From the IMG/VR virus record IMGVR_UViG_3300029854_000006: a stretch of 44,299 nt of DNA, one strand, 5' to 3'. The stretch is from a virus. Shown here piece by piece: positions 1-44,299 of this stretch; position 1 is the first letter of the stretch, and each line of letters opens with the position of its first letter. The notes under the pieces are model-generated. The model saw only the letters and a program-made list of their open reading frames with translations. It searched no databases and was not told the origin of the DNA. The translations under genes were made by a program, and so were the position numbers.

Positions 1-99
1 GAGAAAGAGAGGCTGCCCCATGAAAGGATATAGACACCTGACAGAGCATGACAGAAACAAAATTGCAAAGATGAAAAAAGAGGGGGCGACCATGCGGGA
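1..99. repeat. Terminal direct repeat, copy A (99 bp, identical to 44201-44299)
   Basis: Read base by base: gagaaagagaggctgccccatgaaagg...gaccatgcggga occurs at both contig ends. The repeat runs into the 5' end of the transposase ORF. Confidence 0.95.
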
Positions 100-1066
100 G
101 ATCGGGGCGGCCCTCCATGTGAGTGCGGCCACAGTCTGCCGGGAGATAAAGCGCGGGACATATACATACATGAACGCGGATTACATCGAGGTAACCGAGT
201 ATATACCGGAGCGGTCACACCAGAGATACAGGGCCAACATGGAGGCGAAAGGGCCGGGCTTGAAAATTGGAAGCCACCGGGATTATGCAGAAAAACTGGA
301 GGAGCTGATCGTGGATCAAGATTATAGCCCATCCGCCGCCTTGCATGAAATTGAAAATCACCCGGAGATTTACGGGGATTTTGGGATCCGGGTATGCCGC
401 CAAACTTTGTATTCCTATGTGGACAAGAGGATATTTGCGCGACTGACCAACAAGGACCTGCCATTTAAGGGGGCCAGAAGAAAGAAAAAAACACAGCACA
501 TAAGACGAATGAAAACGGCCCCAAAGGGGGACAGCATAGAAAAAAGACCGGAGGAGGTCAACACCCGCCAGGAACCGGGACACTGGGAAATGGATCTTGT
601 AGTGTCGTGCCGAGGCGGTCATAAGTGCCTCCTGGTACTGACCGAGCGGGTAACGAGGCAGGAAATCATGCGGCTGATCCCGGACAAGACCGCAGCCAGC
701 GTGGTGCGGGCCTTGAACACGATAGAACGGAAATACGGAAAACTATTCCCTACTGTGTTTAAGTCAATCACCGTGGACAACGGATCAGAGTTTGCGGACT
801 GCGCGGGCCTGGAGCGGTCCGTGTTAAAAAAGAGGGGGAAGCGCACGAAAATGTACTACTGCCACCCATATTGCAGTAGTGAAAGAGGAAGCAACGAAAA
901 GCAAAACCAGATGATCCGGCGGAAGTTTCCAAAGGGGACAAACTTTGATAAGGTTTCCCCAAATGAGGTAAAAATGGTGGAGGACTGGCTGAACAGATAC
1001 CCCCGCAAGATCCTGGGATGGTACAGCAGCGCGGACATGTTCCGGGCGCTTATCGAGGCCATTTGA
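20..1066 (+). CDS. IS30-family DDE transposase/integrase
   Basis: 348 aa. N-terminal HTH (REIGAALHVSAATVCREIKRG). Catalytic-core blocks HWEMDLV, TVDNGSEF and CHPYCSSERGSNEKQNQMIRRKFPKG are typical of IS30 transposases. Confidence 0.85.
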   Translation: MKGYRHLTEHDRNKIAKMKKEGATMREIGAALHVSAATVCREIKRGTYTYMNADYIEVTEYIPERSHQRYRANMEAKGPGLKIGSHRDYAEKLEELIVDQDYSPSAALHEIENHPEIYGDFGIRVCRQTLYSYVDKRIFARLTNKDLPFKGARRKKKTQHIRRMKTAPKGDSIEKRPEEVNTRQEPGHWEMDLVVSCRGGHKCLLVLTERVTRQEIMRLIPDKTAASVVRALNTIERKYGKLFPTVFKSITVDNGSEFADCAGLERSVLKKRGKRTKMYYCHPYCSSERGSNEKQNQMIRRKFPKGTNFDKVSPNEVKMVEDWLNRYPRKILGWYSSADMFRALIEAI

Positions 1067-13815: not shown

Positions 13816-14289
13816 ATGGCCATCGACATTTCGGACCTGCCGCCAAAATATCAGCAGCAGGCCGTGGAAAAGTACATGAAGCAACAGAAGCGGCGGGGGC
13901 CTGTGCCTCCCGCCGCAGCTGTGCAGAATACGGACAGGGCGGCGAAATATCGCAACACCCCAACCGAGCGGGTCACCGCCTCCGGGGTCGTTCTCCGCTT
14001 TGACAGCCAAAAAGAGGCTCGGAGATATGACCACCTGACCATACGGCAGAAAGCCGGAGAAATCCATGATCTGCGCCTCCAGGTGGATTTTACTTTGCAA
14101 GAGGCATACACAGACCCGGAGGGGCGGAGAGTGCGGGCCATCCGCTACCGGGCAGATTTTACATACAGGGAGAGGGACGGGCGGCTGGTGGTGGAGGATG
14201 TAAAAAGCAAGCCCACCAGGACACGGGAATACCTGATTAAGCGAAAGCTGATGAAAGAACGGCGCGGAATTGACATAACCGAGGTGTGA
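13816..14289 (+). CDS. DUF1064 protein (putative Holliday-junction resolvase/nuclease)
   Basis: KYRNTPTE...FDSQKEARRY..L......I.DLRLQV.F.L...........Y.ADF.Y......VVEDVKS matches the DUF1064 pattern. Confidence 0.7.
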   Translation: MAIDISDLPPKYQQQAVEKYMKQQKRRGPVPPAAAVQNTDRAAKYRNTPTERVTASGVVLRFDSQKEARRYDHLTIRQKAGEIHDLRLQVDFTLQEAYTDPEGRRVRAIRYRADFTYRERDGRLVVEDVKSKPTRTREYLIKRKLMKERRGIDITEV

Positions 14290-14291
14290 AC

Positions 14292-14819
14292 ATGAAGCAA
14301 CAGGCAACGGGCGGGGCCACCCGCGAAGCCGTAAAAGAATATTTACAGCAGTACCACATGGCGCGGGAGCGGCGGCGCATACTGGAGCGGCGGCACGATG
14401 TACTGGCGCGGGAGCTAAAGGCACCGGCGCCAGGATCGGCATACATGACCATGCCGGCCTCCCACTCTACGGCAGACAGCGAGGGGGCCGTGTCCGTTGT
14501 ATTTCGCTTGTCAGAGGTTGAGGAGCGCATAGAGGCCCAGCGGATAGCCATGGGCCGAGCTGTCACCATGGTAATGGATCTCATTGACCTGTTGCCAGAG
14601 AACAGCATGGAGCGCACCGTGGTGGAGCTGCGGCATATAGATTGCAAGAAATGGGAACGGATCTGCAAAGAGGTCCACATGAGCAGGTCAAGGGTAAATG
14701 TCTACTACAACGCCGCCCTGGATATTATCCTATCCAATGCACGGGCGCAGAAGTTAGTACAAGAGTTTGAGCAAGGGCAGACACCGGAGGTATGCACAGA
14801 AAAAAATGGGCCATATTGA
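14292..14819 (+). CDS. Sigma-70 region-4-like late transcription regulator (ArpU/RinA/DUF1492-like)
   Basis: The C-terminal ERTVVELRHIDCKKWERICKEVHMSRSRVNVYYNAALDIIL is a sigma region 4 type HTH. It is the last gene before the packaging module. Confidence 0.6.
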   Translation: MKQQATGGATREAVKEYLQQYHMARERRRILERRHDVLARELKAPAPGSAYMTMPASHSTADSEGAVSVVFRLSEVEERIEAQRIAMGRAVTMVMDLIDLLPENSMERTVVELRHIDCKKWERICKEVHMSRSRVNVYYNAALDIILSNARAQKLVQEFEQGQTPEVCTEKNGPY

Positions 14820-20107: not shown

Positions 20108-21667
20108 ATGAACATTCAGGAAATGATTGCCCGGCAGCAGGCGATTGTGGACGGCGCCCGGAACGAGGGCCGGGGCCTGACCCGCGAGGAGCAGGCGGAG
20201 TTTGACCAGCTCCAGGGAAAGATTGACGCCGCCCGGAACGCGGGAGGCCAGGACGGCAACCAGGGCGGCGGAGAACACCCTGCGGAGGGCAACCGCGGCG
20301 CAGGCGATCCCGGCGGTGCGGAGGGCGAGGGCAGAAACAATGACGCTACACGCCAGGCGGCGGTGCAGGCAGAACGCCAGCGCAACAGCGACATTGTGGC
20401 CCTGTGCCGGCAGGTAGGCATGGATCCGGCGGAGTACATCCGCGGCGGCCAGACTATGGACCAGGTGCGCCAGGCGGCGGTGGAGTTCATGATCTCCCAC
20501 GGCGGCCCCGTGGGCACCAGGACCGATGACGGCCAGGGCAATGAGTTCCGCAACGCAGCGGTGGACGCCCTGCTGCTGCGTGCCGGCGTCCCTGTGAGCA
20601 ATCCGGCCAGAGAGGCGGACAGCCTGCGCGGCATGTCTGTGCGGGACCTTATGATCGAGTGCATGGCCCGGAGCGGCGAGGGGTCCACCACCTCCATGCT
20701 GCGCATGGGCAAGAATGACCTGTGGGACATGGCGGTGCGCCAGTTCCTTTCCCCCACGGCCTCTTTCCCCGCAATTCTGGATCAGGCCATCCAGAAATCC
20801 ATTGTACACCAGTACCAGCTTGTGCCCACCACATTTGACCTGTGGACCAGCAAGGGCAGCCTGCCGGACTTCAAGCCCAGCAAGGCCCATGAATACACCA
20901 TCGGCGGCGGCCAGTTCGACAAGGTGACCGAGGGCGGAGAGCTGAAGCACAGCACCCTGGACACCGACATGAACCCCCTGCGCAAGCTGGACACCTACGG
21001 GACCCAGTTCACCATGACCCGTGAGGCGTTCATCAATGATGACATTGGCTTTTTGTCCGAAATGCCGGGCCAGTACGCCCGCGTGGCAAAGCGGAAGATC
21101 AACAAGCAGGTGTATGAGGTCATCGTGAAGAACCCCGCCGTATATGACGGCGTGACCCTGTTTGAAGCTGACGCGCACAAGAACCTGATCGCCACCGGCA
21201 CCGCCCCAACCATTGAGAGCGTCCAGAAAATGATGATGAAGCTGCTGCGCCAGACGGATCCTTTTGGGGAAAGCATTATGGTACAGCCCAAGTACATCCT
21301 GGTGCCTGTGGGGTACGGTTTCCTTATGTCCCAGCTGCTTGAAACCTCCCAGGTGGATGTGGAGGGCATTGGCAGCCACACCGCAAACGCCCTTTACAAG
21401 TACCGGACCCAGCTCCAGGTGGTGGAGGAGGGCGCAATCAACGCCCTGGCCGGATCCAGCGAGGTGCCCTGGTATATCGTGGGCGACAAGACCACAGCCA
21501 AGAGCGTGCAGGTGGACTACCTGAACGGAGTGGAAACCCCCAGTTTCCGCCGGAGCGAAAAGGCCGGTTACCTGGGCTTTGTGTGGGACATTTGGCTGGA
21601 CTGGGGTATCACCGTCATGGACTACCGCGGCATTGTCCGCAATAACGGCGTAGCCATTACCGAGTAA
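20108..21667 (+). CDS. Major capsid protein (HK97 fold) with N-terminal scaffold-like coiled coil
   Basis: 519 aa directly after the protease. N-terminal delta-domain-like helix and Gly/Asn linker. Synteny supports the call. Confidence 0.8.
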   Translation: MNIQEMIARQQAIVDGARNEGRGLTREEQAEFDQLQGKIDAARNAGGQDGNQGGGEHPAEGNRGAGDPGGAEGEGRNNDATRQAAVQAERQRNSDIVALCRQVGMDPAEYIRGGQTMDQVRQAAVEFMISHGGPVGTRTDDGQGNEFRNAAVDALLLRAGVPVSNPAREADSLRGMSVRDLMIECMARSGEGSTTSMLRMGKNDLWDMAVRQFLSPTASFPAILDQAIQKSIVHQYQLVPTTFDLWTSKGSLPDFKPSKAHEYTIGGGQFDKVTEGGELKHSTLDTDMNPLRKLDTYGTQFTMTREAFINDDIGFLSEMPGQYARVAKRKINKQVYEVIVKNPAVYDGVTLFEADAHKNLIATGTAPTIESVQKMMMKLLRQTDPFGESIMVQPKYILVPVGYGFLMSQLLETSQVDVEGIGSHTANALYKYRTQLQVVEEGAINALAGSSEVPWYIVGDKTTAKSVQVDYLNGVETPSFRRSEKAGYLGFVWDIWLDWGITVMDYRGIVRNNGVAITE

Positions 21668-22565: not shown

Positions 22566-22900
22566 TGGGCGCCCCTGGCTTCAAGGATCTGGTGGCGGCT
22601 GATATTTCCACCGTGTTTCTAAACGGCCAGGAGTTCGCGGACACCCACACCATAGACGGCAGACCCATGACCGTGGTGGTGGATGAAAACGAACTGCTGG
22701 AGCGGGACAAGTCAAAAATGGGGATCCAGGTGGATGGGACCTACAAAGCCCGCCGGCTGATCTATGTGGCCAAGGAGGAATATGGACCGCGGCCCGCCCA
22801 TGGGAAACAGATCAATTTTGACGGGCGCCTGTTCCGGGTGGCCGACTGCACCGAGGAGGCCGGTATGCTGGCCATTACGCTGGAGGCGGTGAGATCGTGA
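22565..22900 (+). CDS. Putative head-tail adaptor/head-completion protein
   Basis: 111 aa. Assigned by position between the head and tail genes only. Confidence 0.45.
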   Translation: MGAPGFKDLVAADISTVFLNGQEFADTHTIDGRPMTVVVDENELLERDKSKMGIQVDGTYKARRLIYVAKEEYGPRPAHGKQINFDGRLFRVADCTEEAGMLAITLEAVRS

Positions 22901-23502
22901 GCGAAAACGGCGCTATGCTGGAAATTAACACCCAAGCGGAGATCGAAAAGATCATACGCCAGCTGGACACCCTGCCCAACCGGATGAAAGCCCCCGATGT
23001 GCTGGCCAGCGCACTGAACGCAACGGCCAACGAAATGAAGCGGAAGATCGGCCAGAGGACCAGAAAACGCTATGCCATCAATGACAAGAAGATCCTGACC
23101 GACAAGAAGCGGGGCGGCATGTATCTGGAGAGAGCCAAGGGGTCCGCCACATCCGCCACGCTGATCTCCAGGGGCGGCATGGTGGAGGCCATGGCATACA
23201 TGACCAGGAAGAACACCGAAACCACGGCGGCCATGCTGAAAGTGCTGAATGAAAGCGCCATGACGGCGCTGGAGGTGGACGGGCGAAAAGCCTTTGAAAC
23301 CACTTTCAAGAGCGGACACACGGCCATTGTGCAGCGCGTAGGCCGCGCAAGACTGCCGGTAAAGTCCCTTATGGCCCCGGCGGTGCCCATGGCATACGGC
23401 AAGACCTACGAGGAAACCACACAGGACTATTACACCATCCTGCAAAAGCACATCCAGCGGGAGGTGGAGCGGGTCCTGGACGGTTTCGGGAGAGCGGCAT
23501 AA
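22897..23502 (+). CDS. Putative tail-completion/neck protein
   Basis: 201 aa with a GTG start after ggaggcgg. Positional call only. Confidence 0.45.
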   Translation: MSENGAMLEINTQAEIEKIIRQLDTLPNRMKAPDVLASALNATANEMKRKIGQRTRKRYAINDKKILTDKKRGGMYLERAKGSATSATLISRGGMVEAMAYMTRKNTETTAAMLKVLNESAMTALEVDGRKAFETTFKSGHTAIVQRVGRARLPVKSLMAPAVPMAYGKTYEETTQDYYTILQKHIQREVERVLDGFGRAA

Positions 23503-23527
23503 AAAAGCGGCCCCGCAGAGGGGCCGC
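23501..23527 (-). terminator. Rho-independent terminator of the minus-strand moron
   Basis: Stem gcggcccc/ggggccgc (23507-23514 / 23520-23527). On the minus strand it is followed by TTTTTT. Confidence 0.7.
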
Positions 23528-23532
23528 AAAAG

Positions 23533-24093
23533 TCAGCAATTATAAAAATCGTCGCTGGTGTAGCCCATTTGCAGGGCAAGGAAATAAATGTGCTTGCACG
23601 GTTTACTGCGTTTATCAAAATCAGGGCAAGAGCAATAGTCCAGTGTGGTGGTGTATTCCGTTCCGGTGGAACCGCTAACCTTTGCTGTACCGCTGTCCAC
23701 ATCATAGCTGATCAGCCCCAAACACTCATGGGACGCTTTTTCAAAACGGTCAGACTGGGCCGCCCCACGGTGTACTTTTTCGTTCCATTCCCCAAATGAG
23801 TGCCCAATGGGGCAATGCCGACTATGGATAGAAACAAGTTCGTTTTTTTTACGCGGGAAAATCAGGAAATACGAAACCGTTTCACGGATCGTTTTACTCC
23901 CCTCTCTCCCCTCTATCGTGCGCAGTTCGCTTGTCTTGCTTACGGGATGTTTCTTTTTCCACTGGCTATATGCAACCAGGGCAGCGGCGAGTATGACACC
24001 GCCTCCAAATGACTGCACCTCCCCGGTAAACAGGCACCCAAGCGCGAGAACGAGAACGACACCAGCGGCAATATACAGCCCTTTCCCTTTCAT
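23533..24093 (-). CDS. Membrane-anchored SWIM zinc-finger protein (moron)
   Basis: Start at the internal ATG 24093 (RBS ggaaagggtgg). Two N-terminal TM helices (LYIAAGVVLVLALGCLF, GGGVILAAALVAY). C-terminal CSCPDFDKRSKPCKHIYF matches the SWIM CxCxnCxH pattern. Confidence 0.7.
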   Translation of the reverse strand: MKGKGLYIAAGVVLVLALGCLFTGEVQSFGGGVILAAALVAYSQWKKKHPVSKTSELRTIEGREGSKTIRETVSYFLIFPRKKNELVSIHSRHCPIGHSFGEWNEKVHRGAAQSDRFEKASHECLGLISYDVDSGTAKVSGSTGTEYTTTLDYCSCPDFDKRSKPCKHIYFLALQMGYTSDDFYNC

Positions 24094-24162
24094 TTTACCA
24101 CCCTTTCCATGCTCTTTTATGCTGATTATTACCACACTTTTCTGAACATTAACACAACCGTA

Positions 24163-24191
24163 ATTATAGGGAAGAAACGGTAAAAAGTCAA
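24163..24191 (-). promoter_or_regulatory. Near-consensus sigma-70/sigma-A promoter for the SWIM moron
   Basis: The minus strand reads TTGACT, 17 nt, TATAAT (-35 at 24191-24186, -10 at 24168-24163). Confidence 0.6.
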
Positions 24192-24205
24192 GGAGGCGCA
24201 AGCAT

Positions 24206-24685
24206 GTGACCCAAGAATTTTTGCAGGACGCCATGGTGGCGGACCTAAAGGCGCTTTTTGCCCATGAGAGGCTGAAAAACTCCCTGGGCGTCGAGCGGGA
24301 GATCCAGATCTACCCACAGGATGTGCCGATCCGGGAAAGCGACGATGAAGCCATGGACAGGGAGGCGCCGCCGGAGCCTTATGTGGTGGTGCGCCTCCGG
24401 GGAGGAAAGACCGAAAGCGACGATGACCCGCAGATCATTGACGCGGTGCTGGTGACCTGTGTCTACGACCCCGATCCGGGGCGCCAAGGCTACCGGGACG
24501 CCCTGCACATCATCAACAAAATTTATCATCACTATTCCGCCTGCGCCGTGATCGGCAACCGATGGGAAGTCCTTTACCCTATGGAGTGGACCACCCAGGA
24601 GGAGGACACACACCCGTACTATTTCACGGCCATGTCCCTGCGGATCCAGGCGCCGGCGGTCCACAAGGAGGTGCCAGAAGCATGA
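24206..24685 (+). CDS. Putative tail terminator/sheath-initiator-side neck protein
   Basis: 159 aa with a GTG 9 nt after aaggagg. It is the first gene of the tail block; positional call only. Confidence 0.45.
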   Translation: MTQEFLQDAMVADLKALFAHERLKNSLGVEREIQIYPQDVPIRESDDEAMDREAPPEPYVVVRLRGGKTESDDDPQIIDAVLVTCVYDPDPGRQGYRDALHIINKIYHHYSACAVIGNRWEVLYPMEWTTQEEDTHPYYFTAMSLRIQAPAVHKEVPEA

Positions 24686-34456: not shown

Positions 34457-36970
34457 ATGTTTTACGGATTTGTCATTACAGAGGCCGGCAACAATCTGCT
34501 GGCCAAAATGGTGGCCGGCGACAAGCTGACCATTACCAAGGTGGTCATGGACAAGGGCACGGCGGAGAGCGCGGAGGCCGCCCGGAAGCTGACCGCCCCC
34601 ATTGACCCAGGCCCAAACGGCACCAGCACCGTGCCCACGGTGGAGGGCGCCGCCGTCAACATGCTGGTGGAATACCGCAGCGACCTGAACGGCGGATTAC
34701 AGGAGGGTTTCTGGATCGGCGGTTTTGCCGTGTTCGGCAAGGTAGAGAACGGGGCCGAAACCATGATTTATTATGGGTCCATGGGAGAACAAAAGCAGTA
34801 TGTGAGCGCCTATGTGGAGGGAACCGCCCCGGATGTGCGCCGCTACCCCGTTTCCATCACCGTGACCGCCGGCGTGGAGGTAGAGGTGTCCTATCCTGCG
34901 GAGGCATGGATGACTGCCGAGGAGGTGGCGGAATACTTCAACGGGACCCTAAAGCCGGAGCTGGAGGAGAGCCTGGGCGGCCTGATCAAAACACACAACG
35001 AGGATCAAAACGCCCATAACGGTGCCCTGAAAGACAAGCAGGACGCCATCAAGGTGGAGGGCCTGCTGAAAGGGACCAAGACCGCCGGCGAGGGCGGGGA
35101 CACCTACACCGTAGGCGCGGCCACACCGGGCACCGACTACCAGCAGCCCACCAACAAGCTGACGCCGGCGGAGGCCATGACCACACAGGACTTTATCCCG
35201 TTCTATGACCACGACAGCGGCCAGCACATGCGGGCCACGCTCCAGAGCCTGAAAGAGGCCATCGGCGTGCAAAGCCCCACCATCAAGGTGACCACCTGCG
35301 CCGGCGCGTCTGTGACCTGTTCGGACGGGGAAACCACCCTGGAGGGCACGGGATCCACGGAGTTTGAGCTGCCCTATGTGGGGGACTGGACCGTGACCGC
35401 CTCCCTGGGCGGAGCAAACGCCAGCCAAGTGGTGGATGTGAGCGGCGCCCTGCTGTACGAGGTGGATCTGATGATCACCAGCGGCATTGCCGTGACCGCC
35501 CAGCCCAGCAAAAAGACCTATTACATCGGGGAGGCATTTGACCCGGCAGGCATGGTGGTAACTGCTACCTTTGCGGATGACACCACCGAAAATGTGACAA
35601 ACGACTGCACTTTCTCCCCTGTCACCATTTCCAAGGGCACAACGGCCATCACGGTGAACTACCAGCGGGCGGGGATCAAGAAAACCGCCAGCGTGCCGGT
35701 GACGGTGCGGGTGCTGTCCAGCATTGCGATCACAACCGCCCCCGCAAAGACGGCGTACAAATACGGGGAGATCTTCAACCCCTCCGGCATGGTGGTGACG
35801 GCCCACTACACAGACGGCCAGAGCCGGACGGTGACCGGGTACACATTCTCCCCCGACACGGCCCTGGGCATGAGCAACACCACCATTACGATCTCCTATA
35901 CGGAGGGGGATGTGACCAAGACCACAACCCAGGCCATCACGGTGGCCAAGGTGCTGGACCGTATCGCCGTCACAACGCCACCCAGCCGGACCAGCTATTT
36001 TTCCGGGGAGAGTTTCAGCACCTCCGGCATGGTGGTGACCGCCTATTACACCGATGACAGCAGCGCGGCGGTGAGCGGGTACACCTATTCCCCCACCGGC
36101 GCCCTGGCGGCGGGAAACAAAACGATCACCATTTCGTACAGCGAGGGCGGCGTGACTAAGACCACCACGCAAGCAATCACGGTGACCACGATCAGCACAA
36201 CGCTGAACTCCAACAGCTGGGCCACCATCAAGGCGGTTTCTGACGCTGGACAGGGGGACAATTACTGGGATGTGGGCGACACAAAGACCATCACCATCAA
36301 TGGAACGGTGCAGGGCTTTACATTCTCCAACCTGTCCATTGCTGTCTTTATCCTGGGTTTCAACCACAACAGCAGCCGCGAGGGAAGCAACCGGATCCAT
36401 TTCCAGATCGGGAAGATCTCCAGCAAGCTGGTGGGCCTGTGTGATAACAGTTACGGCAGCTATGTATCAAGCGGTTTCTGTATGAATACCAGCCGGACCA
36501 ACTCCGGCGGATGGAATGGCAGCTACATGCGAAAAACCGTACTGGGCAATAGCGGGACCCCATCCAGCCCGCCGGCCAACTCCCTGCTGGCGGCCCTGCC
36601 GGCAGACCTCCGGGCTGTGATGAAGCCGATCACAAAATATAGTGACAACACCGGAGGCGGGAACAATACGGCCAGCTATGTGACTGCCACCACGGATTAT
36701 TTAACCCTGCTGGCAGAGTTTGAATACCACGGCAGCCGGAGCTACGCCAACAGCGCGGAGCAGAACTACCAAAAGCAGTATGACTATTACAAGGCGGGAA
36801 ACAGCAAGGTGCATTACAGGCACGACAACACGGGATCGGCGGTCTTTGCGTGGACCCGTTCCGCCTATGCGGGCGGCAGCAGCATTTTCTGCCTTGTCAG
36901 CACGGCTGGCACGCCCGGCAGCACCAACGCGGACTCTTCAAGGGCGCTTGCCCCCGGCTTTGCCGCCTAA
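34457..36970 (+). CDS. Tail fibre: collar-like N-terminus, three Ig-like repeats, C-terminal DGR-diversified ligand-binding domain
   Basis: 837 aa after gpI. The C-terminus FAWTRSAYAGGSSIFCLVSTAGTPGSTNADSSRALAPGFAA is encoded by VR1. Confidence 0.9.
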   Translation: MFYGFVITEAGNNLLAKMVAGDKLTITKVVMDKGTAESAEAARKLTAPIDPGPNGTSTVPTVEGAAVNMLVEYRSDLNGGLQEGFWIGGFAVFGKVENGAETMIYYGSMGEQKQYVSAYVEGTAPDVRRYPVSITVTAGVEVEVSYPAEAWMTAEEVAEYFNGTLKPELEESLGGLIKTHNEDQNAHNGALKDKQDAIKVEGLLKGTKTAGEGGDTYTVGAATPGTDYQQPTNKLTPAEAMTTQDFIPFYDHDSGQHMRATLQSLKEAIGVQSPTIKVTTCAGASVTCSDGETTLEGTGSTEFELPYVGDWTVTASLGGANASQVVDVSGALLYEVDLMITSGIAVTAQPSKKTYYIGEAFDPAGMVVTATFADDTTENVTNDCTFSPVTISKGTTAITVNYQRAGIKKTASVPVTVRVLSSIAITTAPAKTAYKYGEIFNPSGMVVTAHYTDGQSRTVTGYTFSPDTALGMSNTTITISYTEGDVTKTTTQAITVAKVLDRIAVTTPPSRTSYFSGESFSTSGMVVTAYYTDDSSAAVSGYTYSPTGALAAGNKTITISYSEGGVTKTTTQAITVTTISTTLNSNSWATIKAVSDAGQGDNYWDVGDTKTITINGTVQGFTFSNLSIAVFILGFNHNSSREGSNRIHFQIGKISSKLVGLCDNSYGSYVSSGFCMNTSRTNSGGWNGSYMRKTVLGNSGTPSSPPANSLLAALPADLRAVMKPITKYSDNTGGGNNTASYVTATTDYLTLLAEFEYHGSRSYANSAEQNYQKQYDYYKAGNSKVHYRHDNTGSAVFAWTRSAYAGGSSIFCLVSTAGTPGSTNADSSRALAPGFAA
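35474..36184 (+). repeat. Three tandem Ig-like domain repeats within the fibre gene (78-80 aa each)
   Basis: Units 35474-35707, 35708-35944 and 35945-36184. Each reads IA(V/I)T..P.K..Y..GE.F...GMVVTA.Y.D...V.....SP........T.I.Y......K.....ITV. Confidence 0.8.
36837..36961 (+). repeat. DGR variable repeat VR1
   Basis: 125-nt gap-free alignment to TR 37571-37695. There are 17 mismatches, 16 at TR adenines and 1 C->T (TR 37641 / 36907). Confidence 0.92.
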
Positions 36971-36995
36971 TCGCCGCAGCATATCCGGCCCCAAT

Positions 36996-37018
36996 CCCGT
37001 CCCGCGGAAGCGGGCGGG
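36996..37018 (+). promoter_or_regulatory. GC hairpin with GGAA tetraloop downstream of VR1 (putative DGR target-recognition hairpin)
   Basis: cccg-t-cccgc GGAA gcggg-cggg forms 9 bp with one bulge, 34 nt after the VR1 end. Confidence 0.55.
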
Positions 37019-37057
37019 ATGACCAGAGCGCAGAAACCAAGAGAGGAGGACACCACC

Positions 37058-37516
37058 GTGTCCGTTTTGAAAGAGAAACGCACCACCAGCAAGGCGGAGT
37101 ATGTGAACACAGCAAACCAGATCTATGTGAAAACCGTGGATTTTCTTTCGCGGCTGTCCGCCCGATACTCCCGGCTGATCGCGGCGGACACCTCACACCT
37201 GGCCGGGCAGGTCATGGACCACGCGGAGCAGGCAAACAAGATCTTTCCGTCCGACGGGCAGAGAAAGGAACTGCGGAAAGCGCACCACCTGGAGGCCCTG
37301 GGCGCCCTGTCCGCCCTGGATGTGCGCCTGACCCACTGCTATGAAATCCTGTACTGCAACCCGCAGGGCGCTTTCACCGACAACAAGGGAAAGAGCGTGG
37401 CGCCCAGGGAGGCCATGGAGCGGCTGGACCGCATGGCCCAGGAGCTGGGGGAGCTGATCGACCAGGAGGAAACCCTGCTGCGGAACATCATGGAGAGCGA
37501 TAAGAAACGAAAATAG
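37058..37516 (+). CDS. avd: DGR accessory variability determinant (Avd-like helical bundle protein)
   Basis: GTG 7 nt after gaggagga. ~150-aa helical, basic protein located between the target gene and TR. The call is mostly positional. Confidence 0.6.
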   Translation: MSVLKEKRTTSKAEYVNTANQIYVKTVDFLSRLSARYSRLIAADTSHLAGQVMDHAEQANKIFPSDGQRKELRKAHHLEALGALSALDVRLTHCYEILYCNPQGAFTDNKGKSVAPREAMERLDRMAQELGELIDQEETLLRNIMESDKKRK

Positions 37517-37570
37517 GTCATAACTGGGTGTATTTCTGAACAAGTGCCGTGCGGCAGGGCGACACTCCGG

Positions 37571-37696
37571 CGGCGGTCAATGCGTGGACCCGTTCCGCCA
37601 ATGCGGGCAACAGCAACAATTTCTGCCTTGTCAACACGGACGGCACGCCCAACAACAACAACGCGGACAATTCAAGGGCGCTTGCCCCCGGATTTT
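37571..37696 (+). repeat. DGR template repeat (TR)
   Basis: Non-coding copy of the VR sequence. In the target frame it carries 11 AAY codons (…NAWTRSANAGNSNNFCLVNTDGTPNNNNADNSRALAPGF). Confidence 0.92.
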
Positions 37697-37965
37697 ATAG
37701 AATGGGTTGAAAGCGGACGCCAGGCGCGTCCCGAACCCGTATAAAAGGAGAAATACTTCCCTGGGTGTAAATCCCTAAAACTGCGCCGCTTGGGAGAGCG
37801 GCATAGGGTATAACCCACGAAAATGGCCGATACCCTATCTTTTGAAGCCTTTACACGGACGCTTTTTGCATGGCGGGTGATGTGCCTTACCCCGTTTCAT
37901 GTGTCGAGGCAAAGCAGATTAGACGGCACCCTACAATTTATCTGCACGAAAGGCGAATACCAATT
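37697..37965 (+). ncRNA. TR-RT spacer, probable structured part of the DGR RNA
   Basis: 269 nt with no convincing ORF. Hairpins are ggacgc/gcgtcc (37715-37731), gccgc/gcggc (37785-37802) and tagggtat/ataccCta (37804-37837). Confidence 0.4.
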
Positions 37966-39123
37966 ATGACAAGTCAAGAGCGCCGGGAGGCGCGATACCA
38001 ACGCCGCAAGGCGCGGCGGAGAAGAAACAGGCAGGCCCGCAGCGACGGCCTGGGCGGGCTGGCGGGCGTTTTCAGCTACCGGAACATGTTCAAGTACGGG
38101 AAAAAGTGCTGCAACGGCGTGCGCTGGAAAGGATCTACACATAACTTTGAGCTGCACCTGTTTTCCGGCACGGCCAAGCGGCGGCGCAGGATCCTGGACG
38201 GGAAATGGAGGCCGGGAAAAACCATCCGCTTTCCCCTGCGGGAGCGGGGAAAGTTTCGGACCATCGACGCACCGCACATCACGGACCGACAGATCCACAA
38301 GGTTTTCACCAGGGAGGTGCTGGCGCCGCTCTACTGCCCCAGCATGATCTATGACAACGGGGCAAGCCAAAAGGGAAAGGGCCTGCACTTTCATTTCCAG
38401 AGGCTAAAGGAACAGCTGCGCTGGCATTACCGGCGGCACGGGCGGCAGGGCGCCATCATGCTGGCGGATTTCCACCACTTTTTCCCGGACGCGCCACACG
38501 CGCTGCTGTATGAACGGCACCGGCGCCTGATCCTGGACCAGGACCTGCGGGCGCTGGCGGATCTGATGGTGGCGGCGGTGCCGGGCGAGGTGGGCATGTA
38601 CCTGGGCGTGGAGCCGAGCCAGCAGGAAATGGTGGCCCTGCCCTCCTATCTGGACAACTGGATGAAATGCCAGCTTTCCCTCCACGGCATGGGCCACTAT
38701 ATGGATGATTACAACGCGATCCTGGAGGGTACGGAGCAGGCGGAGAGGGTCCTGGCGGAAATGATCCGCCGGGCGGCGGAAAAGGGACTGACGATCAACC
38801 GGAACAAATGCCATGTGATCAGCCTGGACAAGCCTTTCCGTTTCTGCAAAGCCAAGTTTCAGATTTTGCCCAGCGGGCGGGTCATCACCCACGGCTGCCG
38901 GGACGGCATGAAGCGGGCGCGGCGGAAAATGCGATATTTCCGCAAGCAGGTGGACGCCGGGGAAAAGACCGTGGAGCAGGTGGCGGAATGGCTGAAAGGT
39001 CCAATCGCCTACTATGAGCAATTCAACGACCATGGGCGGGTGCTGAAACTGCGCCGCCTGTATTACGCCCTGTTCATCAAGGGCAGGAAAACAGAGGAGG
39101 TAAAACCATGTATCGGATCGTAA
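37966..39123 (+). CDS. DGR reverse transcriptase
   Basis: 385 aa from the internal ATG (track ORF 37870-39123). LGVEPSQ matches the DGR-specific [ILV]GxxxSQ motif. YMDD catalytic motif. Confidence 0.9.
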   Translation: MTSQERREARYQRRKARRRRNRQARSDGLGGLAGVFSYRNMFKYGKKCCNGVRWKGSTHNFELHLFSGTAKRRRRILDGKWRPGKTIRFPLRERGKFRTIDAPHITDRQIHKVFTREVLAPLYCPSMIYDNGASQKGKGLHFHFQRLKEQLRWHYRRHGRQGAIMLADFHHFFPDAPHALLYERHRRLILDQDLRALADLMVAAVPGEVGMYLGVEPSQQEMVALPSYLDNWMKCQLSLHGMGHYMDDYNAILEGTEQAERVLAEMIRRAAEKGLTINRNKCHVISLDKPFRFCKAKFQILPSGRVITHGCRDGMKRARRKMRYFRKQVDAGEKTVEQVAEWLKGPIAYYEQFNDHGRVLKLRRLYYALFIKGRKTEEVKPCIGS

Positions 39124-42636: not shown

Positions 42637-42843
42637 TTAAATTATACTATCATCAGCGGAGACAATGCAAATACCTCCACTTCCAACATGGAACACATTG
42701 CCACCATCATCAGAGTAAGATTTCACGCCGCTGTGCCGTTTGCTTCCATCATACATGTTTGTTTCGTATTCCCATTCAGGGTGACGGGTCAGTTTTCCGA
42801 TCACTTCAAAGCCAACCGATTTGGCGTATTCTCTAATTTTCAT
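42637..42843 (-). CDS. Hypothetical small protein (minus-strand accessory operon)
   Basis: 68 aa from the internal ATG 42843 (RBS ggaaaggtg): MKIREYAKSVGFEVIGKLTRHPEWEY... Confidence 0.5.
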   Translation of the reverse strand: MKIREYAKSVGFEVIGKLTRHPEWEYETNMYDGSKRHSGVKSYSDDGGNVFHVGSGGICIVSADDSII

Positions 42844-42883
42844 AAAAGACACCTTTCCGCCGGAGGGCGCCTGATCCACCGGA

Positions 42884-43105
42884 TCAGGCGATTGCCTCCA
42901 ACTCCATATCTTCAATTTCGGCCCAGGGAAAACCAAGGCGGTGCATATCGTCCCCGGCACTGGAGAGAACCACGCTGGCCTCCATGGTGAGGTCTGCATA
43001 ACAAAGTGCAGCAAACATTTTATAGACCTCCACGGCACGCTCCATGGTGAAAACACGGATATTGCCAACCATGGCCCCATACTTCCCGTTTTGCTTAATC
43101 AACAT
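42884..43105 (-). CDS. Hypothetical small protein (minus-strand accessory operon)
   Basis: 73 aa from ATG 43105 (RBS aaaggtgg, 8-nt spacing). In frame with track ORF 42884-43117. Confidence 0.5.
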   Translation of the reverse strand: MLIKQNGKYGAMVGNIRVFTMERAVEVYKMFAALCYADLTMEASVVLSSAGDDMHRLGFPWAEIEDMELEAIA

Positions 43106-43196
43106 GATTTTTACCACCTTTCAAAATTCTACGGAACAACCGGCGGAGCGGGACAAACACCGCAACAAATATCACAAGAGAAATTAGAAATTTCAT
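43095..43196 (-). CDS. 33-aa hydrophobic peptide, type I toxin-like (below ORF-track cutoff)
   Basis: Hand-translated: MKFLISLVIFVAVFVPLRRLFRRILKGGKNHVD. GGAGGG lies 6 nt upstream. It overlaps the next gene start by 11 nt. Confidence 0.4.
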   Translation of the reverse strand: MKFLISLVIFVAVFVPLRRLFRRILKGGKNHVD

Positions 43197-43210
43197 CGTC
43201 TGCCCTCCTA

Positions 43211-43240
43211 TTGACAAAACCGGATGATTTGTTTTATATT
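43211..43240 (+). promoter_or_regulatory. Strong-looking promoter antisense to the minus-strand operon
   Basis: TTGACA (43211-43216), 18 nt, TATATT (43235-43240), pointing into the hairpin and the 43-aa ORF on the opposite strand. Confidence 0.4.
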
Positions 43241-43241
43241 T

Positions 43242-43271
43242 GGGGTGCGGAGGTTAGGGCCTCCGCACCCC
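43242..43271. other. 12-bp GC-rich hairpin just 3' of the 43-aa minus-strand ORF
   Basis: ggggtgcggagg ttaggg cctccgcacccc. There is no U-tract on either strand. Confidence 0.6.
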
Positions 43272-43277
43272 TGGCCT

Positions 43278-43409
43278 TTACCAGTCCAGCAATTTGAGGA
43301 TTGCGGCTGTGATCAGGCCGGAGATTGTACCAGCGAGAATGTCAGCTGCCAGGCTTTCCATTCTGCTGGGCGCCGTGGGCTTTCGCCTGCGGCGTTTTTT
43401 CTTGCTCAT
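43278..43409 (-). CDS. 43-aa peptide with polybasic N-terminus and hydrophobic C-terminal helix (below ORF-track cutoff)
   Basis: Hand-translated: MSKKKRRRRKPTAPSRMESLAADILAGTISGLITAAILKLLDW. RBS ggaaaggaag. First gene after the leftward promoter. Confidence 0.45.
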   Translation of the reverse strand: MSKKKRRRRKPTAPSRMESLAADILAGTISGLITAAILKLLDW

Positions 43410-43442
43410 TTCAACCACTTCCTTTCCCCTTGAACTGATTAA

Positions 43443-43471
43443 ATTATACATCTAACAGGAGATAAAAACAA
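43443..43471 (-). promoter_or_regulatory. Leftward promoter of the switch region
   Basis: The minus strand reads TTGTTT, 17 nt, TATAAT. Operator copy 1 lies in the spacer. Confidence 0.45.
43450..43464. promoter_or_regulatory. Operator repeat O1 (ATCTAACAGGAGATA)
   Basis: 15-mer with palindromic ends ATCT-N6-AGAT; identical to O2. Confidence 0.6.
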
Positions 43472-43487
43472 GCGTTAAACTTAACAA

Positions 43488-43502
43488 ATCTAACAGGAGA
43501 TA
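43488..43502. promoter_or_regulatory. Operator repeat O2 (ATCTAACAGGAGATA)
   Basis: Exact copy of O1, 38 bp away. Confidence 0.6.
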
Positions 43503-43511
43503 TTTATATAA

Positions 43512-43526
43512 ATCTAACAGTAGATA
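43512..43526. promoter_or_regulatory. Operator repeat O3 (ATCTAACAGTAGATA)
   Basis: 14/15 match to O1/O2. It overlaps the -35 of the rightward promoter. Confidence 0.6.
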
Positions 43527-43567: not shown

Positions 43568-43774
43568 ATGGGCAGACCGAAAAAAGAGGGTGGAATAAGC
43601 GCCACAGACTACAAGCGGGCTTTCAATGAAAAGAACTATGACCGGCTTTCCCCCTATGTAAAGCGTGGAAAGAAAGAGAGATACAAAGCCGCGGCGGCGG
43701 CTGCCGGGTGCAGCCTTAATGAGTTCATGGAAAGGGCCATGGACAAACTGGCGGAGGAAATCCTGGGAGAATAA
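43568..43774 (+). CDS. Ribbon-helix-helix (Arc/CopG-like) DNA-binding protein
   Basis: 68 aa from the ATG after gaggtg: MGRPKKEGGISATDYKRAFNEKNYDRLSPYVKRGKKERYKAAAAAAGCSLNEFMERAMDKL. First gene of the rightward operon. Confidence 0.6.
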   Translation: MGRPKKEGGISATDYKRAFNEKNYDRLSPYVKRGKKERYKAAAAAAGCSLNEFMERAMDKLAEEILGE

Positions 43775-43880
43775 CGCCCCACGAAAAACCGGCAATTATC
43801 CTCCATTTGGTGGACTATATTTTCTTGTGCTGAATATTACCACGGGTTTTGACGCCGGCCTGTGTTAATATCAAGAAAAA

Positions 43881-43897
43881 TGTGGGTTATATCCACA
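43881..43897. promoter_or_regulatory. Palindrome TGTGG-N7-CCACA upstream of the XRE gene (possible autoregulatory operator)
   Basis: tgtgggttatatccaca lies immediately before RBS ggaggagg and GTG 43914. Confidence 0.35.
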
Positions 43898-43913
43898 GTG
43901 GAGGAGGCGCCGG

Positions 43914-44156
43914 GTGAAGTTTTACGAGATCAACGGGAAAAGAAATTTATGCGGGGATAGGATCCGGGAGGCAAGACAGAAAAAGAGGCTTTCCCAGTCT
44001 GAACTATGCAAGCTGCTGCAACTGCGGGGGATCATGGTGGAGCGTGATGTGATCAGCCGCATGGAGAGCAGGGCCAGGATCGTGACTGACTTCGAGGCCG
44101 TGGCTATTGCGGAGGTGCTGGAGGTCCCTGTACTGTGGCTGCTGGATAAAGAATAG
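43914..44156 (+). CDS. XRE-family HTH transcriptional regulator (cI/Cro-like)
   Basis: 80 aa. GDRIREARQKKRLSQSELCKLLQLRGIMVERDVISRME is a classic HTH_3 pattern. Confidence 0.8.
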   Translation: MKFYEINGKRNLCGDRIREARQKKRLSQSELCKLLQLRGIMVERDVISRMESRARIVTDFEAVAIAEVLEVPVLWLLDKE

Positions 44157-44200: not shown

Positions 44201-44299
44201 GAGAAAGAGAGGCTGCCCCATGAAAGGATATAGACACCTGACAGAGCATGACAGAAACAAAATTGCAAAGATGAAAAAAGAGGGGGCGACCATGCGGGA
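44201..44299. repeat. Terminal direct repeat, copy B
   Basis: Exact copy of bases 1-99. It restarts the transposase ORF (ATG at 44220). Confidence 0.95.

Follow-up and report, generated by a model that had tools for sequence, protein, structure and literature searches.

How a small gene for a predicted membrane protein comes to lie against the direction of the late operon of a contractile-tailed phage, and what it may do there, is the question raised by the IMG/VR virus record IMGVR_UViG_3300029854_000006. This record, analysed here over its whole length of 44,299 nt (hereafter the window), carries a 186-aa open reading frame (ORF; 23533..24093, minus strand, ATG start, TGA stop, stop codon included), the product of which is predicted to join an N-terminal transmembrane (TM) hairpin to a C-terminal SWIM zinc-finger module. 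The gene is flanked on the left by a Neck1/tail-completion gene (22897..23502, plus strand; phrog_27, E = 1e-16) and on the right by the gene of a 159-aa virion structural protein, here called p159 (24206..24685, plus strand; phrog_2581, E = 3e-27), 3' of which lie the sheath, tube, tail-assembly chaperone and tape-measure genes. An earlier note on this DNA had described a 186-aa minus-strand gene between the neck and tail genes as a self-contained moron, and the ORF was confirmed at 24093..23533.

We surveyed the synteny of this junction in related phages, as the earlier note had advised, by an independent IMG/VR search with the p159 flank, and were able to place both flanks on 45 contigs. 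The junction was found to be polymorphic for presence and absence: the SWIM gene occupies it in 24 contigs, another cargo in 16, and in the remaining five (L156, L158, L160, L161 and L162) it is empty, with 18-42 nt between the Neck1 and p159 genes; the insert in the window measures 703 nt. Across about 60 SWIM-bearing loci of the lineage, in which the structural proteins fall to ~40-60% identity, the gene is always at the Neck1/p159 junction and always antisense. The alternative cargos were read in eight representative loci. They include lipoproteins of 140, 241-243 and 267 aa with clear lipoboxes, together with N-terminally TM-anchored exported proteins of 208 and 260 aa, and the slot as a whole holds at least five unrelated cargo families. 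All the alternative cargos lie on the opposite strand, with a GC content of 0.47-0.53 against 0.59-0.63 in their flanks. Two contigs (L137 and L138) carry a lipoprotein cargo although their p159 gene is 96% identical to that of the window. None of the alternative cargos matches a known anti-phage system; one of them, L164, has weak matches to PHROG families of superinfection exclusion (Sie; E = 2e-5), which cover its N-terminal anchor only.

The frame around every cargo type examined is the same, consisting of CCTCCTTGACTT-17-TTATAAT, one or two leader copies of (T)GTGGTAATAATCAGCA, and GCGGCCCC..GGGGCCGC-T6-ATGCC. The island is also AT-richer than its surroundings, as had been pointed out from G+C counts that proved exact (43 in 23533-23632; 41 in 20161-20220). 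The GC content of the ORF is 0.50 against a window mean of 0.587, a value as low being found in 3.6% of equal-sized windows, and its GC at third codon positions is 0.54, compared with 0.77-0.82 in four late-operon structural genes that include both immediate neighbours. A moron is defined in the literature as extra DNA of deviant GC with a promoter and a terminator of its own (PMC3594210). Since the island is extra DNA relative to the empty junctions of its relatives, deviates in GC and has its own predicted promoter and terminator (PMC3594210), its status as a true moron, one occupant of a conserved and swappable slot, is strongly supported, and the description in the earlier note holds. Expression from the repressed prophage, which the definition also includes, is made uncertain for this gene by operator-like repeats in its leader. 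A reading of the product as a virion component, which that note had set against its own proposal, is ruled out by the opposite strand and by the absence or replacement of the gene in 21 of the 45 related contigs.

The slot shows several further variations. L163, L166 and L170 have multi-gene slots, in which an extra plus-strand ORF of 58-98 aa (MTEYSNIYRSEDGTEVEIKMKTGCKT...) lies between the cargo promoter and p159, and L166 has in addition a minus-strand zinc-ribbon-like ORF with its own TATACT box. In P0070, L131 and L163, the SWIM cargo is a variant with a C-terminal Cys-rich extension (CRVYHxxPxCRGL...RPCKxCC). P0070 joins the TM hairpin of the clade P0006-P0008 to a divergent SWIM module, a combination that is evidence of domain shuffling within the slot. 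Finally, the 1461-nt contig P0062 encodes a 158-aa chimera of a Neck1-like N-terminus and a SWIM-finger C-terminus, which is a deletion or assembly artefact across the slot.

The signals that make the unit self-contained were examined next to its coding sequence. On the minus strand, a -35 box TTGACT (24186..24191) and a -10 box TATAAT (24163..24168) separated by a 17-nt spacer form a predicted promoter (24191..24163) that agrees with the consensus at 11 of 12 positions, with no second such site in the 20-28 kb region. The window contains the exact pattern a single time (0.00 expected from shuffles), and one other 11/12 site exists in the whole 44 kb (43211..43240, plus strand). The -35 box is conserved as CCTCCTTGACTT in every slot examined, whichever the cargo, and the -10 box as TTATAAT in related loci, which at the level of sequence bears out the near-consensus promoter claimed earlier. 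A ribosome-binding site, AAAGGGTGG (24098..24106, minus strand), was read from the sequence 4 nt 5' of the ATG. At the other end, an intrinsic terminator (23501..23527, minus strand) abuts the stop codon of Neck1. It comprises an 8-bp all-G+C stem, GCGGCCCC-TCTG-CGGGGCCGC (arms GCGGCCCC/GGGGCCGC), followed by T6, with a folding energy of -20.5 kcal/mol (z = -3.1); given this fold and its retention around all cargo types, the minus-strand hairpin with T6 that the earlier note had reported at 23527-23501 stands as well. Late transcription should read through the hairpin, since AAAAG comes after it in the plus-strand direction.

Between the promoter and the ribosome-binding site, two conserved 17-nt direct repeats sit immediately 3' of the -10 box in the transcribed leader: unit 1, TGTGTTAATGTTCAGAA (24140..24156, minus strand), and unit 2, TGTGGTAATAATCAGCA (24120..24136, minus strand), scoring 26.4 and 29.1 bits, respectively, against a position weight matrix (PWM) for the unit. 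The leader has no Rfam match at E <= 1 and its fold is not significant (z = -1.06), on which grounds a riboswitch or structured leader was dropped and the repeats were read as DNA sites. The PWM was built solely from the slot leaders of several phages, and the maximum score in 30 shuffles was 17.3 bits. Its best independent matches in the window are two remote units that lie 37-86 nt upstream of a gene for an XRE regulator: CGTGGTAATATTCAGCA (43828..43844, minus strand; 24.9 bits) and, inverted relative to it, TGTGTTAATATCAAGAA (43861..43877, plus strand; 20.3 bits). The XRE/HTH_3 gene itself (43914..44156, plus strand) encodes 80 aa, has its own terminator, and gives a product with a Pfam HTH_3 match (E = 1.5e-7) and matches to PHROG transcriptional repressor/regulator families. 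Moreover, a 24-nt composite motif is found only at the slot leader and at the XRE-upstream locus (0.00 expected), and 14 variants from other contigs have kept the region of the XRE-upstream units. A search between and around the two units for a canonical promoter of the XRE gene yielded no convincing -35/-10 pair.

The leader repeats look like an operator because the only other strong matches in the genome lie upstream of the XRE gene, suggesting that they are operators shared with the XRE gene region and serve a phage regulator, for which the XRE protein would be the simplest candidate. With operator-like repeats in its leader, the slot gene may be repressed in one phage state. The cargo promoter is thus probably not constitutive, and its earlier description as a constitutive-type promoter is doubtful, given two operator-like 17-nt repeats placed 3' of the -10 box and shared with the XRE upstream region. 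A distant homologue in L079, with DUF4236, TM2 and SWIM domains, lies between an endolysin gene and an XRE-XRE-IS30 module and is divergent from XRE. It has its own terminator and its own TTGACG-17-ATAATA promoter, which is bracketed by two copies of a different 16-nt repeat. We also observed that the plus-strand unit TGCTGA(T/A)TATTACCAC ends exactly 70 nt before the GTG starts of both p159 and XRE (24136 to 24206; 43844 to 43914), each start being preceded by GGAGGCGC. The equal spacing is either a coincidence or a sign that the 17-nt unit may also act on plus-strand expression.

What the promoter would express is a predicted membrane protein in two parts. The TM hairpin is encoded by codons 3-43 (23965..24087, minus strand) and was recognised by hydropathy, by its flank charges and in a model made with AlphaFold2 (AF2): the hydrophobic segments span residues 3-27 and 28-43, and the AF2 helices residues 4-22 and 27-48. 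Both flanks are rich in Lys and Arg (MKGKG before, WKKKH after), from which an N-in/C-in topology and a cytoplasmic SWIM module are predicted. The two N-terminal TM helices and cytoplasmic domain proposed in the earlier note thus agree with all three lines of prediction. The extended SWIM module (codons 97-186; 23536..23805, minus strand) starts with FGxW..VH..AQxDRFE..H and continues with three strands and then the CxC..CxH helices. Its zinc-ligand core, C154 x C156 ... C166 x H168 (23590..23634, minus strand), falls within a Pfam match to SWIM (PF04434) at residues 153-175 (E = 7e-8) that scores 32.2 bits against a gathering cut-off of 19.6, in accordance with the C-terminal SWIM finger reported before.

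A search for homologues recovered 63 proteins down to 44% identity, all of them metagenomic and unnamed, in which the C-terminal ~90 aa are strongly conserved with the finger motif CSCPDFxKRxxPCKHIYxLA. Among the 47 full-length homologues, 27 positions are invariant, including all four zinc ligands. C154, C156, C166 and H168 are found in 47/47 homologues and in 147/147 representatives of the wider family, so the loss of Cys/His conservation that had been named as a possible objection to the finger is not seen; a natural variant, P0012, has Cys changed to Ser at the third ligand. N-terminal hydrophobic segments are likewise present in 47/47 homologues. These anchors are clade-specific, cannot be aligned and are not homologous to each other, indicating that, as far as the sequences tell, N-terminal anchors are swapped between lineages while the module is kept.

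With a profile of the C-terminal module, we retrieved 1741 representative clusters (E <= 1e-3), of which 465 reach E <= 1e-10. In the top 147 representatives, the Gln and Arg of the upstream helix are nearly invariant, and TM-like segments or TM2 domains are present in 81 of the 147. Modules in tandem occur in many members, and the partner domains in the wider family comprise BRCT (11 members), TM2 (6), zinc ribbons, one Mrr_cat and one SpoIISA. The earlier note had regarded SWIM domains as normally soluble and a membrane tether as unusual, a view that these proportions do not support: by its domain composition, the membrane-tethered SWIM protein is a common, uncharacterised architecture. The module shares the CxCxnCxH signature and invariant ligands with PF04434 proteins at large (MuDR/FAR1 transposases, SNF2 ATPases, MEKK1 and ZSWIM). 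Unlike a typical member, it has the finger as the C-terminal part of a ~90-aa module with an extra FGxW..H..Q..R helical part, carried on a membrane anchor. No member of this extended-SWIM sub-family with a known function or a solved structure emerged from the PDB and BFVD comparisons.

Structure and family searches gave little further indication of function. The AF2 models reached a predicted local distance difference test (pLDDT) score of 65 for the full protein, and a pLDDT of 75 with a predicted template modelling score of 0.71 for the C-terminal module. A Foldseek search against the PDB returned nothing below E = 0.3, and a comparison with BFVD returned solely other unnamed viral SWIM-type proteins and a 130-aa protein labelled 'DNA ligase' (E = 1.7e-4), none of which is informative on function. 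When the profile was compared with PDB sequences, the sole match was the archaeal ribosomal protein uS10 over TFGxW..VH (E = 0.07), judged to be due to chance. Neither the window protein nor any of four homologues matched PADLOC (PADLOC-DB v2) at E <= 1, PHROG and NCBIfam contain no family for the SWIM protein, and by sequence and profile membership in the three resources (PHROG, PADLOC and NCBIfam) it belongs to none of the described Sie families. The statement of the earlier note that the protein could not be matched to a described one therefore holds for defence, Sie and structural families in PADLOC, NCBIfam and PHROG. A literature search on SWIM combined with prophage, anti-phage or bacteriophage found nothing relevant.

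Natural alleles provide information on whether the gene is required. An A8 homopolymer tract in the linker (23843..23850, minus strand) is the site of a natural A7 frameshift allele, which predominates in the reads or assemblies of 15 or more metagenome contigs, with the flanking genes intact. Of the 15 A7 contigs read, eight from eight samples were compared in detail: in six the gene has no other difference from that of the window, in two it has one further base change, and in all eight the product is a 126-aa protein without the SWIM module. Other frameshifts occur at other positions, and at least 10 distinct frameshifted clusters lack the SWIM module. Because such variants, the A7 allele among them, persist in nature, the gene is dispensable as judged from its sequence variation. 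The intact protein is found in 552 index blocks of public assemblies versus about 15 contigs for A7, and the A-tract is limited to the closest clade (A7-A8), being absent in L001, L004, L006, L009 and L016. A lineage-wide adaptive phase variation at A8 was ruled out by the restriction of the tract to the closest clade and by the rarity of broken alleles, and the A7 alleles were read as recurrent loss at a slippage-prone site, not as an evolved phase switch. If one A is added to the A8 tract, translation would stop seven codons later, so transcriptional slippage could also yield an anchor-only product.

Several known systems resemble parts of this arrangement. The founding moron, HK97 gp15, is an inner-membrane superinfection-exclusion protein, and the unit in the window is like it in being an independent promoter-gene-terminator unit among tail-morphogenesis genes, with atypical composition, absent from relatives and encoding a small protein, predicted for the window to lie in the inner membrane (PMC3594210). 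Unlike the E. coli protein gp15, which has no zinc finger, the SWIM protein comes from an antisense unit with operator-like repeats in a host of the Gram-positive-type Clostridia; the two have no sequence similarity, and a common function would be an analogy. Lambda bor is a lipoprotein moron transcribed against the late operon from its own promoter. It matches the slot in orientation and in having a promoter of its own and is the best analogue for the lipoprotein cargos, whereas the cargo in the window is a predicted cytoplasm-facing SWIM protein, not a lipoprotein, and has no homology to it. Ltp of the Streptococcus thermophilus phage TP-J34 and the lactococcal Sie2009-type proteins are prophage products, anchored in the membrane or by a lipid, that prevent the entry of DNA (PMC3952083). 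They share with the slot cargos a prophage origin and, for the cargos by prediction, an envelope anchor, and it is here that the weak PHROG matches of L164 point; unlike the SWIM module, which is predicted to be cytoplasmic and has no PHROG or PADLOC match, they have the active domain outside and are encoded in the lysogeny module. At the level of the locus, the closest parallel is with the hotspots of P2 and P4 phages, fixed sites between conserved phage genes that hold many alternative antiviral cargos (PMC9122126). Like them, the junction holds diverse unrelated cargos and an empty state between the same core genes (45 loci). It differs in having single small envelope-associated cargos, no recognisable defence systems, and a shared promoter-operator-terminator frame, and a similar role would again be by analogy.

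We propose, tentatively and at somewhat less than an even chance, that the tethered SWIM module may exclude other phages at the level of the envelope, from the cytoplasmic face of the membrane. As the sequences show, the cargo is dispensable, horizontally exchanged and separately transcribable, and the slot supplies a strong predicted sigma-A-type promoter, a two-repeat leader, a ribosome-binding site and an intrinsic terminator, all facing against the late operon. The 17-nt repeats would be operators for a phage regulator, most simply XRE, and the cargo would be switched with the phage immunity circuit, independently of late transcription. The 186-aa cargo would form an N-in/C-in hairpin and a variable linker that hold a zinc-binding extended SWIM module at the cytoplasmic membrane face. 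In phage-carrying cells, the tethered module would bind an incoming component at the inner membrane face, possibly the DNA, an ejected protein or an early protein of a competing phage, and this binding would block establishment of the competitor, which amounts to superinfection exclusion or defence. The gene would then be an optional competitive benefit to the phage, not needed for virion production. Exclusion is suggested because the other cargos are envelope proteins of the kind by which Gram-positive prophages (PMC3952083) and HK97, through gp15 (PMC3594210), are known to exclude phages, because anchors and cargos swap rapidly, and because L164 has its weak Sie match. A broader claim, that TM-anchored extended-SWIM proteins are a new and widespread phage-encoded anti-phage class working at the cytoplasmic membrane face, and the junction of these abundant gut phages a regulated, XRE-wired defence hotspot with a fixed promoter-operator-terminator socket for interchangeable envelope-associated cargos, appears doubtful to us.

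Several points weigh against exclusion. The SWIM protein has no homology to a known Sie or defence family in PADLOC, PHROG or NCBIfam, and the weak Sie match is that of another cargo and extends over its anchor only. Operators just 3' of a -10 box usually repress; were the prophage repressor the binder, lysogens would keep the gene silent and it would come on early in infection or induction, a pattern that fits exclusion less well. Exclusion during lytic growth also exists. In addition, the lipoprotein cargos act outside the cell, on the side opposite to the predicted location of the SWIM module, and the cargos may thus differ in function; the topology is itself a prediction from hydropathy and charge.

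The same repressive position of the operator-like units 3' of the -10 box, and their sharing with the XRE region, would suit a gene that serves the phage's own early functions, repressed in lysogens and on at infection or induction. The tethered SWIM module might then anchor phage DNA, or sequester the XRE regulator or the sigma-like late activator encoded at 14286-14819, much as phi29 p16.7 or a membrane anti-sigma or anti-repressor protein would. p16.7 is the product of an early-operon gene, a membrane-anchored DNA-binding protein that organises phage replication, and the SWIM protein resembles it in having an N-terminal anchor, a linker and a predicted cytoplasmic domain of a nucleic-acid-binding type. 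The fusions of the module to BRCT (11 members), Mrr_cat and zinc ribbons provide a link to DNA, the phage does carry a sigma-70 region-4-like regulator, and the L079 homologue is divergent from an XRE gene in the manner of a genetic-switch partner. We nevertheless consider such an early function unlikely. Relatives with a 96%-identical p159 carry a lipoprotein instead and others are empty, frameshifted alleles persist in nature, and a needed gene should not be so dispensable or so readily interchangeable with extracellular proteins; p16.7 also differs in that it takes part in the replication of its phage and has no homology to the SWIM protein, whose gene can be lost or exchanged.

The recurrent natural frameshifts might also be taken as a sign of a fitness cost, as expected of an abortive-infection or toxic effector, in which the SWIM module would sense a DNA or protein cue of a phage and the hairpin would oligomerise, with membrane depolarisation and death of the infected cell as the outcome. 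A small protein of the membrane whose cytoplasmic domain is sensor-like, under tight promoter/operator control, would fit this role, as would the family fusions to TM2 (6 members) and, once, to a SpoIISA-type membrane toxin. The intact allele is far commoner (552 index blocks against ~15 contigs), however, the two-helix hairpin has no amphipathic or pore-forming signature, PADLOC gives no match, and the co-cargos are lipoproteins, not toxins, so that a killing function seems very unlikely to us. SWIM domains also mediate protein-protein binding, as in MEKK1 and ZSWIM8, and this would allow the product to be a lysogenic-conversion factor that alters the envelope physiology or signalling of the host, for example through a host protein drawn to the membrane, and so benefits the lysogen within the gut. 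In favour of this are the alternative cargos, surface lipoproteins without an assigned function, and the fact that moron cargos often serve the host, as do lambda bor and others (PMC3594210). Such a conversion role is quite unlikely in our view, since no domain indicates a host pathway and since the rapid swapping of anchors and cargos, with presence/absence polymorphism, is more typical of conflict genes. That the ORF is a non-functional remnant or a chance reading frame in an AT-rich spacer, for which the frameshifted alleles could be cited, is hardly credible: 63 homologues down to 44% identity keep 27 invariant residues with the four zinc ligands, the promoter, ribosome-binding site and terminator are conserved, and the module recurs in 1741 representative clusters, a degree of conservation that effectively refutes it.

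As for the phage itself, a 99-nt direct repeat at the ends of the window (1-99 and 44201-44299) indicates that the window is a circularised, complete phage genome of ~44.2 kb. It encodes a GpA-type terminase, portal, S78 protease, capsid, contractile tail, a tail-fibre diversity-generating retroelement (DGR), an endolysin and an IS30-like DDE recombinase, with the small XRE protein and the sigma-70 region-4-like protein (14286-14819) as regulators; an RHH-like protein is encoded at 43568-43774. The 552 index blocks that contain the identical SWIM protein include contigs of 50 kb to 1 Mb. Near-identical gene copies are found in the genomes of the cultured isolates Dysosmobacter welbionis and Ruminococcaceae bacterium AM07-15, and remoter copies in D. 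segnis and others; a 94%-identical protein of D. welbionis bears the NCBI label 'SWIM zinc finger family protein'. Because the exact protein occurs in so many blocks and long contigs and copies are present in isolate genomes, the phage is a common temperate myovirus of human-gut Oscillospiraceae, such as Dysosmobacter and Ruminococcaceae AM07-15. In the GenBank phage collection, the sole relative is MT835543.1, which has no annotation.

The phage is very common in human-gut metagenomes, and cultured isolates of Dysosmobacter and Ruminococcaceae carry it in integrated form. Were the slot a regulated cargo socket, this would provide a ready catalogue of candidate exclusion or defence genes, comprising TM-SWIM proteins, several lipoproteins and anchored exported proteins, for the gut Clostridia, in which phage-host biology is almost without experimental tests. 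Under the same condition, function could for the first time be approached in a large, uncharacterised SWIM sub-family (1741 representative clusters), in which most of the top clusters are membrane-anchored. Should the gene be an ordinary moron of unspecified benefit, one conserved feature of these phages would still have been annotated correctly.

Elsewhere in the window, the IS30-like DDE recombinase gene (20-1066, plus strand; HTH_38 and rve domains; phrog_4646, E = 4e-125) is of low GC and lies directly 3' of the XRE gene. No tyrosine or serine integrase was found among the window ORFs scanned, and the recombinase is for this reason probably the phage integrase; a 47%-identical copy adjoins the XRE genes in L079. 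A second minus-strand cluster of tiny genes with low GC (0.43-0.50) lies between the lysis and regulator genes (42637-43451, minus strand, and 43440-43520). Its products include a 43-aa tail-anchored protein, a 33-aa TM peptide and two proteins of 73 and 68 aa, and it has a TATAAT box surrounded by three CTGTTAGAT repeats; the TM2-SWIM homologue of L079 is at the equivalent position. The DGR region (34457-39123) has a variable repeat at 36819-36961, a template repeat at 37553-37695 and a reverse transcriptase gene at 37870-39123 (phrog_1423). The 143-nt repeat pair, with 83% identity, connects the tail-fibre gene at its 3' end with a template copy 5' of the reverse transcriptase gene, and 16 of the 25 mismatches are at template adenines. 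A restriction-alleviation gene (Lar_restr_allev, 72 aa), located about 10 kb away from the SWIM gene, is found in L025, L027 and L030 and is absent in L026, L028 and L029, contigs of the same phage that are otherwise identical, which reveals another small polymorphism.

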